Assembly: GCA_043822305.1 (NCBI GenBank)
Contig: JBDRBU010000032.1
Coordinates: 1 to 10,514 of the forward strand
Source of the DNA: Candidatus Firestoneibacteriota bacterium
GTDB taxonomy: Bacteria; Oederibacteriota; D2-FULL-39-29; JBDRBU01
Direction of reading: 5' to 3'
DNA length: 10,514 nucleotides
The stretch's first letter is position 1, and the number at the start of each line of letters is the position of its first letter. The position numbers and the translations under genes were made by a program. Under the pieces are notes generated by a model. It saw only the letters and a program-made list of their open reading frames with translations, made no database searches and was not told where the DNA came from. Positions 283 to 10,263 of this stretch are shown here, one piece after another.

Positions 283-1260
283 TTAAAAATAAAAACTTAA
301 ATGTATATTAAACATTACTGCAATTCCCCTATCTCCGGATTTCAAGATAATATAATTTGCCCCTTGGTAATAATTCCGCATATAAGATATTCCTGTATCT
401 AGTCCTATTCCAATAGGAGCAAAATATAGCTCAGTCCCAATAAAACCACCTGCATTATAATAATTATCTATAGTATCAATGGCTCTATTACCACTATAAC
501 GAACGGCTAAACTATAATCAACACCTAAATATGGATAAATAACAGATCCCTCAGATATAAATAAATAATATCCCCGTCCTCCAATACTCCATGTCCGCAA
601 ATATATTTCGGCTAAAATATTATCACTAATACCGTATCTTATATGAAAACCAGGATAATTAAGGCCTATAGCAACTCTATTTGCGAAACTTGTTGTTTCG
701 ATTGTTTTATATTGTATGCGTTTATTTATTTTCTCTTCTTTTTTTTCTGCCGGTTTTTCAACTTCCTTTTTCTCCTCTTTTACCTCAACTCCTGATAATT
801 GACCAGCCACCTTTTTTGTTAACGCTTCAATTTCATCTAAATCCTTGCACTTCTCTCTTAGTGAAAATACGATGGCTGATGTTTCCACATCTACAACACT
901 TACTTCAAGATAATAGAACGTTCCTAGTTTTGACAAGGTTCCAACAACCATCTTTCTTACATTTAATATTCTCCCCACTTCAACAGCACACTCCATATTC
1001 GTACAACCTGACATCTGAAACTTCTGCTCATTTAATATTTTGTCCATATTTGTTCTATCTAATACTGTAAATTTCTGAGTATTAACCATATCGCTTCTTA
1101 AAAAATTCGCTACTATTTCAGCTTCTGCTGCTGATACAACTTTTGCATCAAAAGTAGCAACTGCTATCTTCTCTTTTTCTGCACCGAAAGTTAAATCACA
1201 AAAAAGAATTAAGAAACTTACAAAAAATAATATACTCTGTTTTTGTCGAGTAGAACTCAT
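283..1260 (-). CDS. Exported CsgG/HfaB-like protein with a C-terminal beta-strand-rich (outer-membrane-like) domain; 3' exon of an intron-interrupted gene
   Basis: Hydrophobic signal peptide (KQSILFFVSFLILFCDLTFGA). CsgG-like segment 'KFTVLDRTNMDKILNEQKFQMSGCTNMECAVEVGRILNVRKMVVGTLSKLG', K/E-rich linker, amphipathic strands ending in ...HLSFYF. Spliced form is join(1911..1908,1244..283), 321 aa, starting MKKQSIL. Unspliced form from the intron-internal ATG at 1260 is 325 aa, starting MSSTRQKQSIL. Confidence 0.75.
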   Translation of the reverse strand: MSSTRQKQSILFFVSFLILFCDLTFGAEKEKIAVATFDAKVVSAAEAEIVANFLRSDMVNTQKFTVLDRTNMDKILNEQKFQMSGCTNMECAVEVGRILNVRKMVVGTLSKLGTFYYLEVSVVDVETSAIVFSLREKCKDLDEIEALTKKVAGQLSGVEVKEEKKEVEKPAEKKEEKINKRIQYKTIETTSFANRVAIGLNYPGFHIRYGISDNILAEIYLRTWSIGGRGYYLFISEGSVIYPYLGVDYSLAVRYSGNRAIDTIDNYYNAGGFIGTELYFAPIGIGLDTGISYMRNYYQGANYIILKSGDRGIAVMFNIHLSFYF

Positions 1261-1400
1261 AGCCACCTCCTCGAGGACACTATGAGTCCCCTCACGGAAC
1301 TGGACGTGAAGTTTTCCCTCATCCAGCTCTTCAAGTATATCTCCCTATTTTGACCCTCAAAGGTCATTTTTAAGGTAATTGGGTTAGGTTGCGTTGCCAA
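1257..1400 (-). pseudogene. Remnant of the intron-encoded protein start; 47-codon mini-ORF reading through D4-D5-D6
   Basis: GGAG at 1409-1406, then TTG at 1400, at the usual IEP start position just after D3. First residues (L/M)ATQPNPITLK resemble group II IEP N-termini from memory. No RT motifs follow. Stop TGA at 1259-1257. Confidence 0.55.
1297..1329 (-). ncRNA. Group II intron catalytic domain 5
   Basis: 33-nt hairpin GAGCUGGAU...AC-GUCCAGUUC with AGC catalytic triad, purine-rich loop and AC bulge. Confidence 0.93.
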
Positions 1401-1907
1401 CTGTTCTCCAGCTTTGATACTGGCGGTTGTTTCCCCGTCCTGATATACTCGTAAGTCCCTTCGCTCCATTTGCTTTCACAGACTTCTTCGCTACTATGGA
1501 CTTATCCGACCACCTATTATAAATCTTTTGCAACTCCTTGCTTCTTACGGCTTGTTGTTGCATACCTCTTATAAGGAATACATAGGTTCTCCCAAGTTCC
1601 TGTAATATCTCTTTAATGCGTCGCCACGGTCTCAGACCCCGTCGGGTTCCTGTTTCCTCGCCTCTTTTATTTGATTCGGCTACAGGACTTCTGTCTGCTC
1701 CATTATGAACTGTCCTGACCTCCGACATGATGGTGATTTCGGGGCTCAATCCCTTCACTTGCGTTACGGCTCCACATTCCTCCACTTTGGCTTCACGTAT
1801 GCAGGTTACCCCACATGGTTGTGCAAAGGTTTGTTCTGGAGTGATGGCTAATCTTTTCCCAGATTGAATTTTCACCAATTTGATATTACAAGCTTTTCTT
1901 GGCACAC

Positions 1908-1920
1908 TCATAATCACCTC
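1908..1920 (-). promoter_or_regulatory. 5' exon end: Shine-Dalgarno GAGGTG, start codon ATG and 1 nt (intron target site, IBS2/IBS1)
   Basis: Minus strand reads GAGGTGATT-ATG-A|GTGTG. Joining to 1244 gives ATG AAA AAA CAG AGT ATA, in frame with the downstream ORF. Confidence 0.85.
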
Positions 1921-1935
1921 GAATACTCTTATATA

Positions 1936-1964
1936 AATATATCATTAAAATTCATAAATATCAA
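1936..1964 (-). promoter_or_regulatory. Putative sigma70 promoter of the intron-containing gene
   Basis: TTGATA (1964-1959), 17-bp spacer, TATATT (1941-1936) with an extended -10 TGn. The AT-rich context raises the chance of a false match. Confidence 0.55.
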
Positions 1965-2135
1965 CCAAAAATATCAGAAATTCCCCATCTAAAAATGATT
2001 CAAGAGAAGGCAGTAAAAAGAGCCTAAAATAAGAAAAAGAAAAGAGAAAAAAGGTAAAAATATTGTATAATTGTAATGAAATAAAGCAATATCTTCTTTT
2101 TCTTTTCTCTTTTTTGGAATCCTATCTATCTGGAG

Positions 2136-2462
2136 GTGTTTAATATAGAAATAAACATAAAAGAATATTTCAGATTTATGAATGAAAGATTTCACATGGA
2201 AAATCAGATAGAAAGATTGCCGGATAAAAGAGTAAAGAAGCAGATAAGTTTAAAACAAATAATACAAATGTTGTTCGTAATGGGAGCATTGGGAGTAAGG
2301 AGTATAAAGCAATTAGATATTTTAGGCAGACAGAATTGGGCTAAGAAATTTACAAATAGTAAAAGGCTGCAGGTAGTAAGCGATAGCAGTATAGAGCGAA
2401 TAATAAGATGGTTAAGCGGGAAATTGATCGAAGAAATAAATTTAACAAAGTTCTGTACATAG
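2136..2462 (+). pseudogene. Truncated DDE transposase, N-terminal domain only (ISAs1/H-repeat/ISNCY-like)
   Basis: 'LPDKRVKKQISLKQIIQMLFVMGALGVRSIKQL' and 'VSDSSIERIIRWL' resemble the DxR...L..I and (P)SxxTxxR motifs of H-repeat-type transposase N-termini. ORF ends at 108 aa, before any catalytic domain. Upstream TATAAT (2066-2071) and GGAGGTG (2132-2138). Confidence 0.7.
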
Positions 2463-7366: not shown

Positions 7367-8800
7367 TTAAAATACTCCACTAAAATACATTGCTGATTCT
7401 TTAGCAAATCTTATAAAAAACTCGGGGAATATACAAATAATTAGAACCATAACAGCACTTATTCCAATAGTTATGGTTAAACTTAACGAAACTCGGACAT
7501 CAAATTCTACTTTTGGTTGAGTAAAATATATTTGGCGCACAATTCTGAAATAATAATACAACGCAATTACACTATTTAAAATTCCTACTATAGCCAGCCA
7601 GACATAACCTGAATCAATTGCAGAATAAAAAACGAAAAATTTCCCCAGAAATCCCGCCGTAGGTGGAATACCTGCCAGTGAAAGCAAAAACAAGACAAAT
7701 ATTAAAGAAAGAATGGGATTTTTTAATGACATCCCCGCATAATCCCTTATATCATCACTACCTATTTTATTATAAATAGCAATAACTAGAGCAAAGGCAC
7801 CTATATTCATAAATAAATAAGCAAGAGTATAAATAAGAATCGCTTGTAGGCCTAATAAGCTATATGAAACAAAACCTATTAAAATATACCCAATATGGGC
7901 TATGCCTGAATACGCTAGAAGTCTTTTTACATTATTCTGGGAAATAGCGATTAAATTTCCCACAGTCATGGTCACGGCTGAAAGAACGGCTAAGATTAAA
8001 TTAATATTAGAATTCCCTCCCAGAACAACCATAAATGTGCGAATTAAAATCGCTAACCCGGCTGATTTTGAAGCCACAGATAAAAATGCAGTTACTGGAG
8101 TTGGTGCACCTTCATATGCATCTGGTGCCCACATATGAAATGGAACCAGAGCAATCTTAAAACCAAATCCAACCAACATAAGTAATAACGAAGTTAAAAA
8201 TAAAGGATTTATTCCATTAGTTTTAACCCAATTCTGAATAGCAAATAAATTACTTGACTGAGTTATACCTACAAGAAGCGAAGCACCATATATAAAAATA
8301 GCGGATGAAAAAGCACCAAGCAAAAAATATTTTAAAGAAGCTTCCCTTGATTTTAAATCCTGCCTTAAAAATCCAACAAGTATATAAAAAGTTATACTAA
8401 CAAATTCTATGCTTAAATAAATCATAAGAAGTTCGTTAGACATAACCATAAACATCATACCTAAAGTTGCAAAGACTATTAGAACTGAATACTCGCCTAT
8501 TTTAGAATCTGGTAAAATCTTAAAATCTTTAGAAAGAAGTAAAACAAATATTGAGCAAACTATAACTATGATTTTAAAATAAGTTGAAAAAGGATCAAGC
8601 CTAATTGAATTATTAAATAGCGATGTTGTCGTCCCGGAATATATAATCACTATTAGTAAACTTAACAGTAATCCAAATAATGCAATATCTAACAGTTTTC
8701 TTTTAGAACTTACAGAAAATATAAGATCCGCCATTAAAATAATAAGACCAAGGCAGAAAACAAATATTTCCGGAGACAAAAATAAAAAATCCTTAATCAT
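7367..8800 (-). CDS. nuoN: NADH-quinone oxidoreductase subunit N
   Basis: 'EASLKYFLLGAFSS', 'GFKIALVPFHMWAPDAYEGAPTPV', 'KRLLAYSGIAHIGY', 'SLAGIPPTAGFLGKF'. ATGA overlap with the nuoM stop. Confidence 0.96.
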   Translation of the reverse strand: MIKDFLFLSPEIFVFCLGLIILMADLIFSVSSKRKLLDIALFGLLLSLLIVIIYSGTTTSLFNNSIRLDPFSTYFKIIVIVCSIFVLLLSKDFKILPDSKIGEYSVLIVFATLGMMFMVMSNELLMIYLSIEFVSITFYILVGFLRQDLKSREASLKYFLLGAFSSAIFIYGASLLVGITQSSNLFAIQNWVKTNGINPLFLTSLLLMLVGFGFKIALVPFHMWAPDAYEGAPTPVTAFLSVASKSAGLAILIRTFMVVLGGNSNINLILAVLSAVTMTVGNLIAISQNNVKRLLAYSGIAHIGYILIGFVSYSLLGLQAILIYTLAYLFMNIGAFALVIAIYNKIGSDDIRDYAGMSLKNPILSLIFVLFLLSLAGIPPTAGFLGKFFVFYSAIDSGYVWLAIVGILNSVIALYYYFRIVRQIYFTQPKVEFDVRVSLSLTITIGISAVMVLIICIFPEFFIRFAKESAMYFSGVF

Positions 8801-10263
8801 ACCTTAACTCCTAATAAATTAATAAGTTTTGTTACCGTAGGTCCGGATAAATTAATTATTAAAGAAGGAATTATCCCTAATAAAATCATTAAAAAAGTTA
8901 AAGGAATTATTGATATTAACTCTCTTTTATCCATATCCCGCAAATCTTTCCATCTTTCATTTAATGGACCTAAAAATATTTTTTGGATCATAATTAAAAA
9001 ATAGGCTGCGGTAATAACTATACCCGAAATTGAAATTATAGTTATGAGTTTAAACACAGTAAATCCTCCGGATAAACACATAAACTCACTTATAAATCCG
9101 GCTAAGCCAGGAAGTCCAAGTGAAGCCAGACAGGAGACTATCATCATGCCGGTATAAACCGGAACTTTAACTCCCAACCCTCCAAAGGCATCAATATCTC
9201 TTAAATGTGCTCTGTCATAAATTACTCCAACAAGCAAAAATAAAGACCCTGTAATTATTCCATGATTAAACATTTGAAATATTGCTCCATTTAAACCAAC
9301 AGAATTCATGGCGGCCATGCCGAGTAAAACAAAACCCATATGACTAATACTGGAATAGGCGATCATCTTTTTCAAGTCTTTCTGAGCCATAGCCACAAAT
9401 GCTCCATAGACAATATTTATCAAGGCTAATATGGCCAGTGGATATGCAAAATATATGGCAGAAGAAGGTAAAATTGTATAACTCACTCTTAACATACCAT
9501 ATGTCCCCATCTTAAGTAAAACCCCTGCTAATATCACACTAACCGCCGTAGGTGCTTCAACATGAGCGTCTGGCAACCAGGTATGAAATGGAAACACAGG
9601 CACTTTAATGGCAAATCCTATAAATAAAGCAACATAAACAATATGTTGAAAAATTAGAGAAAATGGCTGATATTTAGCTAATTCAATCATGTTAAATGTA
9701 TGTGGATTACTTGCAAAGTAAAGACCTATGATGGCCAGAAGCATAATTACACTTCCAAATAATGTGTATAAAAAGAACTTTATGGCTGCATACTCTTTAC
9801 GAGGTCCACCCCAAATCCCTATTAAAAAATACATTGGGACAAGCATAACTTCCCAGAAGATATAAAACAAAAATAAATCCAAAGATACAAAAGCTCCTAT
9901 CATCCCGGTTTCAAGTAACAAGAAAAAGAAAAAGTACTCTTTAACTCTTTCTTTAATATTAAAAGAAAATATCACCGACAAGAAAGCAAGTAAAGGTGTA
10001 AGAATTAGCATGGCTACACTTAAGCCATCTATTCCCATAAAATAAGTAACACCCAGAGAAGGTATCCAGTCACATTTTTCAACAAATTGTAAATCAGAAG
10101 CACTCCGGTTAAAACTAAAAAATATCAAAAACCCTAAAACCAATGATAGAAAAGAAAACAGAGCAGCTGTCCATTGAATCCATTTTATTTTATCCTTTGG
10201 CAAGCATAAAACAATTATCGCTCCCATCAATGGTAAAAATGTTATCAATGTTAAAATCGGCAT
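8797..10263 (-). CDS. nuoM: NADH-quinone oxidoreductase subunit M
   Basis: 'DLFLFYIFWEVMLVPMYFLIGIWG', 'AIKVPVFPFHTWLPDAHVEAPT', 'LLKMGTYG', 'AYSSISHMG', 'LGLPGLAGFISEF'. GGAGGG RBS. Confidence 0.97.
   Translation of the reverse strand: MPILTLITFLPLMGAIIVLCLPKDKIKWIQWTAALFSFLSLVLGFLIFFSFNRSASDLQFVEKCDWIPSLGVTYFMGIDGLSVAMLILTPLLAFLSVIFSFNIKERVKEYFFFFLLLETGMIGAFVSLDLFLFYIFWEVMLVPMYFLIGIWGGPRKEYAAIKFFLYTLFGSVIMLLAIIGLYFASNPHTFNMIELAKYQPFSLIFQHIVYVALFIGFAIKVPVFPFHTWLPDAHVEAPTAVSVILAGVLLKMGTYGMLRVSYTILPSSAIYFAYPLAILALINIVYGAFVAMAQKDLKKMIAYSSISHMGFVLLGMAAMNSVGLNGAIFQMFNHGIITGSLFLLVGVIYDRAHLRDIDAFGGLGVKVPVYTGMMIVSCLASLGLPGLAGFISEFMCLSGGFTVFKLITIISISGIVITAAYFLIMIQKIFLGPLNERWKDLRDMDKRELISIIPLTFLMILLGIIPSLIINLSGPTVTKLINLLGVKV

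Follow-up and report, generated by a model that had tools for sequence, protein, structure and literature searches.

A group II intron of 663 nt without an RT gene interrupts a protein gene one base after its start codon in the stretch of DNA analysed here (the window: 10,514 nt, contig JBDRBU010000032.1 of a Candidatus Firestoneibacteriota bacterium), and carries an SD-like motif and an AUG of its own in domain 6 (D6). This anatomy is conserved in a lineage of related introns, and in several of these one frame is free of stop codons from the host start codon to a UGA that overlaps the D6 AUG as AUGA. From these features we infer translation through the intron followed by termination and restart, and we think it rather probable that introns of this lineage insert after the start codon, carry a restart site in D6 and relay ribosomes through the intron to the AUGA. 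For a wider reading the arguments seem to us evenly balanced, namely that this cross-domain lineage is a translation pass-through cassette, which homes to start codons, has its RT made via the host RBS, returns the ribosome at a UGA/AUG overlap in the branch-point helix, keeps its RT-less offspring stop-free with an unconstrained peptide, and leaves its genes expressed without splicing.

In the proposed mechanism, ribosomes loading at the host's own RBS would translate through the unspliced intron, their passage would melt the stable hairpin of D6, in which SD and AUG lie buried, and after termination at the UGA they would restart at the overlapping AUG. The product would be the host protein with MSSTR(Q/H) replacing its first two residues, and the host gene would be expressed whether the intron is spliced or not. 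In full-length copies, the host's start signals would also serve for synthesis of the RT. Since the frame of the relatives runs from the host start through the whole intron to the restart codon, it suggests that the gene is translatable without splicing. Ribosomes crossing D1-D3 should hinder folding of the ribozyme, a cost to splicing that counts against the proposal.

Intron anatomy, host gene and loss of the RT gene

The intron occupies positions 1245..1907 of the minus strand, the strand of all intron and host-gene features given here, and reads from 5' GTGTGCC to ...TCTACTCGAC 3'. Its Rfam matches are RF02005 at 1872-1627 (76.5 bits against a 49-bit threshold), covering the D1-D4 core, and RF00029 at 1331-1245 (48.8 bits against a threshold of 40), covering D5/D6. 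The consensus for group II introns is 5' GUGYG and 3' AY, with an A bulging out of D6 at a distance of 7-8 nt from the 3' end. Here the termini are GTGTG (1907-1903) and ...GAC ending at 1245, and the bulged A at 1251, 7 nt from the 3' end in the predicted fold, is a candidate branch point. Both ends coincide with those of the full-length relative L035, and the intron is a single copy in its genome. EBS1 (UCAUAAU, 1702..1708) complements the last 7 nt of exon 1 through 7 contiguous pairs with IBS1; L043, L095 and L035 show covariation between EBS1 and the 5' exon. An EBS2 mimicking the anti-SD (AUCACC with GGUGAU) was considered and rejected: it overlaps IBS1 by 2 nt in the window, and the EBS2 loops of other copies pair inconsistently with their 5' exons.

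Domain 5 was placed at 1297..1329 by Rfam alignment and folding, and D6 folds as a long hairpin at 1245..1293 (-25.9 kcal/mol). Alignment and fold together define a 17-nt apical extension of D6 (1262..1278), which is missing from the aligned short-D6 relatives and contains the SD-like GGAGGTG (1270-1264), partly paired with CCUC in the fold. Downstream of it stands the ATGA at 1257..1260, made up of the intron-borne AUG (1260-1258) and the stop UGA (1259-1257) of the spanning frame.

The host gene has a promoter-like site (1936..1964), TTGATA-17-TATATT, whose second hexamer is preceded by TG; this is a consensus match only (10 of 12 positions) and lies about 25 nt upstream of the start codon. 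Exon 1 bears an SD-like GAGGTG (1915..1920), comparable purine-rich motifs being present in the 5' exons of relatives, and ends, by sequence and EBS1 pairing, with the native ATG (1911-1909) and A 1908 (1908..1911), which is also the 3' part of IBS1 (AUUAUGA, 1914-1908). Exon 2 (283..1244) encodes a CsgG-like secreted or lipoprotein-type protein (Pfam PF03783 CsgG, 35.2 bits). The exon-exon join would read MKKQSILFFVSF, and the predicted spliced product starts MKKQSILFF..., a signal peptide; read from the D6 AUG, exon 2 gives MSSTRQKQSILFF..., 325 aa. The D6 ATG had previously been treated as the host's own start. It belongs instead to the intron; exon 1 holds the native start, ATG 1911-1909, and the N-terminus MKKQSILFF would be regained on splicing. 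No intron-less host allele was found among 61 related genomes, in which the best match was 45-46% identical and the N-terminal domain of the host protein is highly paralogous.

The description of a group II intron stripped of its RT gene was borne out by the Rfam matches and by alignment to L035 (1977 nt), which encodes an IEP of 510 aa (TIGR04416, 368 bits) whose RT body is absent from the window intron. No group II RT was found in the window's genome, which is 96.8% complete, with PF00078 and TIGR04416. These models were used instead of PF08388 (GIIM), a weak maturase probe with which the L035 IEP itself gives no match at E <= 0.001. The genome has one RVT_1 match, which looks like a DGR-type RT because it adjoins a bAvd gene and its TIGR04416 score, 166 bits, falls under the 300-bit cut-off. 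Compared with PDB sequences, the L035 IEP scores 159 bits with LtrA, 151-158 with IIC-type RTs and 126 with 6me0, values that do not separate the classes.

Insertion site, D6 layout and spanning frame in relatives

Relatives occur in Firestonebacteria, Elusimicrobia, ANME-1-type archaea and other hosts, and most follow a start codon plus one base, as does the window intron, one base after ATG. The 5' splice site is preceded by ATG, GTG or TTG and then A in 13 of the 18 distinct complete copies and by ATG and G in two, and six more 5' junctions show an SD-like motif followed by ATG or GTG and A. EBS1 starts with UCAU, which pairs with AUGA, and the exon-2 products begin at Pfam profile position 1-3 (MazE twice, ROK once). 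A search of the phylum of G064 (9 genomes) gave one extra partial match, and that of G063 (301 genomes) gave none.

The D6 layout of the lineage is an SD-like motif, the AUG, 13 nt and the 3' splice site, with the AUG in frame with exon 2. An SD-like core lies 3-10 nt before the AUG in all 15 distinct extended D6 variants; in the window, TGA 1259-1257 overlaps ATG 1260-1258 with GGAGGTG upstream. The ORF from the D6 AUG is at least 84 aa long, or is cut off by the contig end at 146 aa or more, at 15 of 21 distinct extended-D6 loci, and short D6 without an SD precede ORFs of merely 7-11 aa (5/5 loci). The count of ATGA is partly circular, because relatives were retrieved with a pattern containing TATGAG and the regexes required [AG]TGAG; among five D6 retrieved by BLAST, two are without ATGA (G002 C28, with its ATG in another phase, and G018, with no ATG).

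In 7 of 12 RT-less copies (L048, L074, L084, L085, L086, L087 and L089) reading is uninterrupted in a single frame between the exon start codon and the UGA of the D6 AUGA. In two of seven full-length copies this single spanning frame encodes the RT (L112, 652 codons; L125, 653 codons), which answers affirmatively the question raised earlier of whether a full-length IEP frame also ends at the D6 ATGA. A third full-length copy, L117, has 651 open codons counted back from the UGA and an ambiguous 5' junction, and in L040 all 199 available codons are open. The single frame is absent from 5/12 RT-less and 4/7 full-length copies. A protein search gave 132 clusters of intron ORFs at E <= 1e-5; among the 120 matches listed, 88 start with M[SG][AV]P and 90 end with RWL.

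The D6 site could also be an ordinary internal RBS, used when D6 breathes or unfolds. The long frame would then be dispensable for restart, and would either do no more than keep ribosomes along the transcript, as protection from Rho termination or decay, or be a legacy of the full-length form. The AU-rich D6 variants are consistent with such independent initiation: their folds are weak (-11.4 kcal/mol) and leave the SD in the apical loop, no long frame in them stops at the UGA, and for the most part they still precede long in-frame ORFs. Intact intron frames are also found before short downstream ORFs (17 aa in L085, 40 in L084, 38 in L112 and 27 in L117). Against it, GC-type D6 hairpins, that of the window included, have folding energies of -22 to -31 kcal/mol with SD and AUG paired, the intron frame stops exactly at the AUGA in 90 of the 120 homologues among the matches listed, and full-length and RT-less forms, which read D5/D6 in different frames, end at the same UGA. 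We regard initiation independent of the upstream frame as unlikely.

The termination-restart relay, as read from the frames, is nevertheless not universal in the lineage, because the RT frame of AU-rich-D6 copies with an RT gene (L053, L054, L061 and L067) stops 99-108 nt before the intron end; in these four the frame that ends at the UGA is merely 5-31 codons long. The idea that RT is always translated from the host AUG was likewise given up. That frame stops after 5 codons in G002 C28 and after 36 in the Firestonebacteria-type 5' ends L072 and L076, and the idea also fails in L100 and L102.

The window locus was sought in eight sequencing runs, which shared 5-8% of sampled words, and was not found; contigs of four of the eight runs hold fragments of related introns without the window locus. 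One contig from an RNA library (X7, record 19) holds a relative of about 91% identity that follows ...TTATGA and has a D4 of 71 rather than 90 letters. It may be DNA carry-over and is given no weight in the argument.

Open frames across the window copy

Two overlapping frames cross the window intron. Frame A (1384..1911) leads from the host ATG through D1-D3 into D4 and stops at TAA 1386-1384; it has 175 codons counted from ATG 1911-1909, or 177 from GTG 1917. Frame B (1257..1469) comprises 70 codons from ATG 1469 to TGA 1259-1257. Frame A residues 3-156 align with residues 1-149 of P0010, an intact intron ORF of 211 aa, and frame B residues 11-69 with its residues 154-208. The matches of both frames are confined to the N-terminal extension and the tail encoded by D5/D6, and the frames are thus IEP remnants; the earlier note had described the end of frame B as such a remnant, and its upstream part too corresponds to the IEP frame of relatives.

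The note had further proposed that ribosomes which leave frame A at its stop, TAA 1386-1384, move back 14 nt to begin again at TTG 1400, served by GGAG 1409-1406, and after 47 codons restart once more at the D6 AUG. Every letter of this arrangement is found on the minus strand: GGAG is followed by aacag and by TTG 1400-1398, the frame is open for 47 codons through D5 (1329-1297) and D6 (1293-1245) to TGA 1259-1257, the TGA overlaps ATG 1260-1258 as ATGA, and the TAA lies four codons past the TTG. The mini-ORF frame extends upstream to ATG 1469 (70 aa), and the overlap of about 90 nt between frames A and B makes a hand-off geometrically possible. Comparison with relatives points elsewhere. Measured against L074 and L048, the phase changes at position 472 counted from the ATG, which places a 1-nt shift at approximately 1435..1445, where a G-run reads GGGG in the window and GGGGG in L074. 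To judge from this comparison, frames A and B are two halves of one frame, split near 1440, and the hand-off is not a designed feature; the frame is single in relatives. GGAG and TTG 1400 can be explained by common descent, since they stand at an internal Gln-Leu position of the single ORF in intact relatives and carry no start mark there. ATG 1367 (36 codons), 17 nt past the frame A stop and in the same frame, is a restart candidate no worse than TTG 1400, and the shift may be an assembly error in the G-run. A restart at TTG 1400 of the kind proposed appears quite improbable to us.

Continuous translation across the intron, as put forward earlier, gains strong backing from those relatives whose single ORF ends at the D6 ATGA; for the window copy the frame is split, and translation across it is what we infer for the lineage. 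For the relay in the window there are three readings: it needs an extra restart, at TTG 1400 or ATG 1367; it is a relic in decay; or the shift arose as an error of assembly. The open frames themselves exceed chance, because in 20000 dinucleotide shuffles of the intron neither an exon-frame ORF of at least 175 codons (0/20000) nor a route linking the exon ATG and the D6 TGA through no more than one change of frame (0/20000) was reproduced. The three frames of the window intron contain 3, 15 and 14 stops.

These frames also bear on the possibility that the host protein comes from spliced mRNA alone (MKKQSILFF...), frames A and B and the D6 AUG being non-functional relics. Splicing would be favoured by the intact 5' GUGUG, D5, bulged A of D6 and perfect 7-bp EBS1-IBS1 pairing, and the broken intron frame of the window would suit relics. 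The 96.8%-complete genome, on the other hand, yielded no group II RT/maturase, and the D1-D4 score of the window copy (76.5 bits) is the lowest among the five copies scored. With that score and the split frame, the window copy may be decaying. Moreover, ribosomes would invade D1-D3, because the host-AUG frame has no stop for 175 codons; in most group I introns an early in-frame stop prevents such invasion, according to a published review (PMC3073962). Expression by splicing only is, in our judgement, distinctly unlikely.

What is preserved seems to be openness rather than the peptide, because substitutions show no codon-position bias and stops are nonetheless absent. Differences between copies are flat across codon positions (e.g. 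63, 61 and 68), dN/dS is 0.53-1.55, and the other two frames contain 14-19 stops; with 200 random substitutions, no in-frame stop arose in only 6 of 20000 trials. A functional protein of about 210 aa made by RT-less introns, e.g. a helper of a trans-acting maturase, would fit the keeping of the frame across over 100 clusters, in which the motif SD.(S/L)IV..K..N..G.KGL recurs, and dN/dS of about 0.55-0.65 between distant copies. It accords poorly with the evenness of differences over codon positions, with dN/dS of 0.8-1.5 between close copies, and with about 39 window codons that lie in another phase than in L074 and L048 and are still open. Among the matches listed there is no Pfam domain except one unrelated match, and we hold a functional peptide to be highly improbable.

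Openness tracks a live host gene as a weak tendency. The relation held in the first six copies and failed in the ANME-class set (ORFs of 17-40 aa); since intact frames precede short ORFs, a live host gene does not by itself account for openness, to which a recent origin of the copies or descent from the full-length form may add.

Comparison with known systems and wider significance

The common view is that group II introns of bacteria and archaea keep out of protein genes, since an unspliced intron kills the gene, and that ribosomes entering an intron are harmful to splicing. If the relay operates as proposed, introns would have a third means of doing no harm, next to splicing and intergenic targeting, and the persistence of RT-less copies in genomes that lack a maturase would be explained. 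The relay would also be a prokaryotic counterpart of the exon-fused RT frames of mitochondrial introns, and a clear example of an open frame under selection while the peptide that it encodes is not.

The mitochondrial group II introns aI1 and aI2 of yeast cox1 have their IEP frame fused to the upstream exon. Their RT frame is continuous with that exon through D1-D3, as in L112 and L125. The present introns differ in that the exon gives only the start codon and one base, the frame crosses D5 and D6 to a stop that overlaps the exon-2 restart codon, and RT-less derivatives keep the frame. Four-nucleotide ATGA overlaps such as that of the nuoM/nuoN-like pair in the window (7367..8800 and 8797..10263) have the same AUGA and an SD-like motif in the upstream frame. 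Compared with this ordinary coupling, the upstream cistron here is a ribozyme whose peptide is seemingly irrelevant, and the site of restart is part of an intron's branch-point helix.

Specialized IIB1 introns at start and stop codons of proteobacterial genes, such as Avi.groEL and EcKTE56.groEL (Michel et al. 2007, as cited in the consulted part of PMC12584367), resemble the window lineage as group II introns associated with the outermost codons, first or last, of protein genes. Insertion of the groEL introns re-creates the stop codon, leaving the host frame correct without splicing (PMC12584367, same part). All members of that clade are described there as having a 300-700 nt 5' insertion (subdomain Ia), together with a CL1-type RT and proteobacterial hosts. 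The window intron lacks subdomain Ia, with about 290 nt from its 5' end to D4 and 663 nt overall; L043 alone has an insert, of about 30 nt. The hosts differ as well, being Firestonebacteria, Elusimicrobia, ANME-1-type archaea and others as opposed to the proteobacteria named in that part of the paper. It makes no mention of a D6-borne SD and AUG or an intron-spanning frame, and our literature search found no paper on either in prokaryotic group II introns; they may be described in Michel et al. 2007 or Simon et al. 2008.

The introns of Trichodesmium dnaN and RIR, which in the consulted part of PMC12584367 are ORF-less and served in trans by a related RT-encoding intron, are alike in being RT-less derivatives of an RT-encoding family inside protein genes. 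As far as that account goes, the window differs in that no cognate RT was found in its genome, and the copies of its lineage in that their frame stays open and they bring a restart codon of their own, which gives a route independent of splicing. Gene callers label such intron frames hypothetical proteins and give the host genes a false MSSTR N-terminus.

Boundaries of the intron and the host start

The sequence elements reported in the earlier note were all found on the minus strand: GGAG at 1409-1406, five bases, a TTG at 1400-1398, 47 open codons, and a TGA (1259-1257) that overlaps an ATG (1260-1258) as ATGA. The surrounding group II intron is matched over D1-D4 at 1872-1627 (-) by Rfam RF02005 (76.5 bits, the lowest among five copies scored, vs 83.6-126.9 for the others) and over D5/D6 at 1331-1245 (-) by RF00029 (48.8 bits). 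A full-length relative in a same-order genome (locus L035; G002, C28) codes for a 510-aa RT/maturase (TIGR04416, 368 bits against a 300-bit cut-off) and runs from GTGCGCC to ...TCTACTCGAC. The window intron shares these ends (GTGTGCC from 1907, ...TCTACTCGAC up to 1245) and is therefore a 663-nt intron from which the RT body has been deleted.

Exon 1 ends in GAGGTGATTATGA, which comprises an SD-like motif, ATG 1911-1909 and one base, and a promoter-like site lies ~25 nt upstream of this ATG; the plus strand carries a 108-aa ORF (2136-2462) just upstream of that site. EBS1 (UCAUAAU, 1708-1702) pairs perfectly with the seven bases 5' of the splice site. Joining the exons gives ATG A/AA AAA CAG... 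(slash at the junction), translated as MKKQSILFFVSFLILF, a signal peptide. As the spliced reading restores this peptide from the exon-1 ATG, the D6 ATG is intron sequence; read from the latter, the host gene begins MSSTRQKQSILFF... and encodes 325 aa, CsgG-like (PF03783, 35 bits). The ATGA overlap is real, but the native host start is 1911-1909 rather than the D6 ATG proposed previously, and the first base of the 175-codon frame A is that of the host's own ATG.

Loss of the RT had been taken to imply a maturase acting in trans. The window genome holds a single intron copy and a single RVT_1 match, which adjoins a bAvd gene and scores under the group II cut-off, and so looks like a DGR-type RT; no group II maturase was found in this 96.8%-complete assembly. 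At locus L002 (G000:C65:3641-6927; ORFs 596..952 and 1291..2307) the genome's only reverse transcriptase lies beside a bAvd-like gene, with flanking ORFs that by eye resemble sulfatase-modifying-factor-type proteins, a layout that looks like a diversity-generating retroelement.

An intron lineage at start codons

A scan pattern built from D6 matched 9 loci in species genomes and 22 in metagenomes. Once same-junction repeats (L052, L056, L057, L060, L061, L063, L013 and L036) had been removed, the set comprised 21 distinct loci whose D6 is extended and 5 whose D6 is short. The taxa given in the record titles are Firestonebacteria, Elusimicrobia, and archaea of the Methanophagales or Methanomicrobia; the element is present in 42/79 genomes of the class to which the archaeal hits belong, often in several copies each. 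An SD-like core (AGGAGG, GGAGGAGGTGG, AAGGAGG, GAAGGTGG etc.) lies 3-10 nt 5' of the AUG in all 15 distinct extended D6 variants. Long ORFs, defined as at least 84 aa or as running off the contig end after at least 146 aa, follow this AUG at 15 of the 21 extended loci (one gene being included three times, at L044, L047 and L059); five others have ORFs of 7-26 aa (L039, L042, L043, L064, L068), and L067 is undecidable. Behind the short D6, which lacks the SD, the ORF is 7-11 aa in 5/5 loci.

The exon-2 products are mutually unrelated (MORN repeat, NeuB, aminotransferase, PEMT/ICMT-like, MazE (twice), ROK and nitrite/sulfite reductase). MazE and ROK profile matches open at position 1-3 directly after the junction, which places these insertions at true N-termini. 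The 5' junction is ATG/GTG/TTG + A in 13/18 distinct complete copies and ATG + G in 2 more; at another six 5' ends, with SD-like motifs before them, the junction is likewise a start codon plus one base. EBS1 begins UCAU in start-codon copies, and at other kinds of site it covaries with the exon (UCAAGA/UCUUGA in L043, UUGGU/ACCAA in L095, UCGA/UCGA in L035).

Several individual copies deserve description. L089 (G402:C164) and L083 are variants of the design; L089 has an exon end of ATG + G, a GTG as the D6 start, an intact intron frame (225 codons) and a response-regulator-like gene downstream. Other kinds of site are seen in L101 (G388:C18), behind TAA + A (possibly a stop codon), and in L095 and L096, which in two genomes lie at a common ...TTTACCAA and whose EBS1 is altered to match. 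In L043 (regions 1900-1980 and 2657-2720) the Elusimicrobia copy sits between inverted-repeat arms GGGGTCAGGTCTT ... AAGACCTGACCCC with a terminator-like hairpin upstream, at an intergenic site where the start-codon context is only TTGA. At L044 (2304-2652), L047, L059 and L063 the intron is 5'-truncated to a D4 remnant, D5 and D6, and lies behind another gene; the copies in L047 and L059 give rise to a bridging ORF of 100-112 codons up to the D6 ATGA, ahead of the gene for a PEMT/ICMT-like membrane protein. Without D1-D3 the truncated copy presumably does not splice, and this gene would need either the D6 start or an ATG inside exon 2, 3 codons from its beginning. An RNA-library contig (run X7, record 19; 1852 nt) carries a relative ~91% identical to the window (aligned at 1298-1350 and 1441-1913), also after ...TTATGA; it diverges after D5, opening GTGCG, and might hold a second intron nested at D6 (twintron).

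A single intron-spanning frame that ends at the D6 AUGA

In seven intact RT-less copies of 638-686 nt (L048, L074, L084, L085, L086, L087 and L089), reading from the exon start codon stays open for 209-225 codons and first meets a stop at the TGA within the D6 ATGA; L040 is open across all 199 available codons. Whether the frame of RT-encoding introns also ends at this ATGA had been posed as a check, and it does in the full-length L112 (1967 nt) and L125 (1970 nt), where single frames of 652 and 653 codons contain the RT. In L117, whose 5' junction is ambiguous, 651 codons are open back from the TGA. The single frame is broken in 5/12 RT-less copies (window, L042, L043, L064, L083) and in 4/7 full-length copies (L095, L100, L102, L035). 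In 20000 dinucleotide shuffles each, the observed open length was never reached for the window, L048 or L074, confirming that these open frames are not chance; it was reached 50 (L042), 557 (L043) and 3106 (L064) times.

A protein search with the 211-aa intron frame of L074 returned 132 clusters at E <= 1e-5. Among the 120 listed, the median length is 214 aa, 88 have the N-terminus M[SG][AV]P (start codon, one base and intron GUGYGCC) and 90 the C-terminus RWL (the codons directly 5' of the D6 UGA); sources among them are Omnitrophota, Edwardsbacteria, WOR-3, Dehalococcoidia, Syntrophoarchaeum and Halobacteriota.

As judged by sequence comparison, it seems to be openness that is conserved and not the peptide. 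Differences between intact RT-less copies are flat over codon positions (e.g. 63, 61, 68 or 21, 19, 22), with dN/dS of 0.53-1.55. Copies differing at about 190-230 sites still have zero in-frame stops; in simulation, 200 random substitutions left the frame stop-free in 6/20000 trials (mean 7.4 stops). The remaining two frames of the copies hold 14-19 stops. Positions 246-363 of the window copy (from the ATG) are phased differently from L074 and L048, yet are open.

In the window copy, frame B extends from TTG 1400 upstream to ATG 1469, giving 70 aa. Frame A residues 3-156 align to residues 1-149 of the intact 211-aa intron ORF P0010, and frame B residues 11-69 to its residues 154-208; since they match successive parts, A and B correspond to the first and second half of the one frame seen in the lineage. 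The shift between them, 1 nt net, falls at about 1445-1435, at a G-run that reads GGGG in the window and GGGGG in L074, and ~90 nt around it are open in both frames. TTG 1400, four codons ahead of the frame A stop (TAA 1386-1384), is an internal Gln-Leu position in intact relatives, and nothing in the comparison with these marks it as a start; ATG 1367 lies in frame B, 17 nt past the frame A stop. The relay idea of the earlier note is right in kind, and relatives strongly support it; what the note says on the host start, TTG 1400 and the A-to-B split has to be corrected. In the window copy a further restart would be needed, or the relay may already be in decay, or an assembly error may have produced the shift.

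Proposed coupling and its relation to known systems

GC-type D6 hairpins, the window's included, have predicted folding energies of -22 to -31 kcal/mol; CCUC pairs with the SD, and the stem encloses the AUG. A free 30S subunit would be expected to bind poorly to an SD and AUG buried in this way. The helix would be opened by a ribosome that comes through in the intron frame, and this ribosome would terminate at the UGA and sit on the overlapping AUG with the SD just behind. We infer that the host gene could be expressed by intron translation with stop/restart coupling: ribosomes that load at the host's own ribosome-binding site would cross the unspliced intron to reach it, and full-length copies would make the RT en route. 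AU-rich D6 variants have a weak predicted fold (-11.4 kcal/mol) that leaves the SD in the loop; in these copies the RT frame ends before D5 and no long frame reaches the UGA, and they may initiate directly instead.

In mitochondrial introns, RT frames fused to an exon are known. The closest described case is the IIB1 clade that occupies start or stop codons in proteobacterial genes, defined, in the sections of the source consulted, by a 300-700 nt subdomain Ia (PMC12584367); the window intron does not have this subdomain and is accordingly not filed there. Most group I introns, according to the part of PMC3073962 consulted, have an early in-frame stop that keeps ribosomes out, the opposite of the frame kept open here. 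In the literature searched we found no D6-borne start or intron-spanning frame described for prokaryotes, although Michel et al. 2007 may bear on the point. Ordinary coupled genes share the layout of stop/start overlap and SD, as in the window ORFs 7367..8800 and 8797..10263 (-; 477 and 488 aa), where the 4-nt overlap noted earlier is present. The earlier reader called these two nuoM and nuoN.
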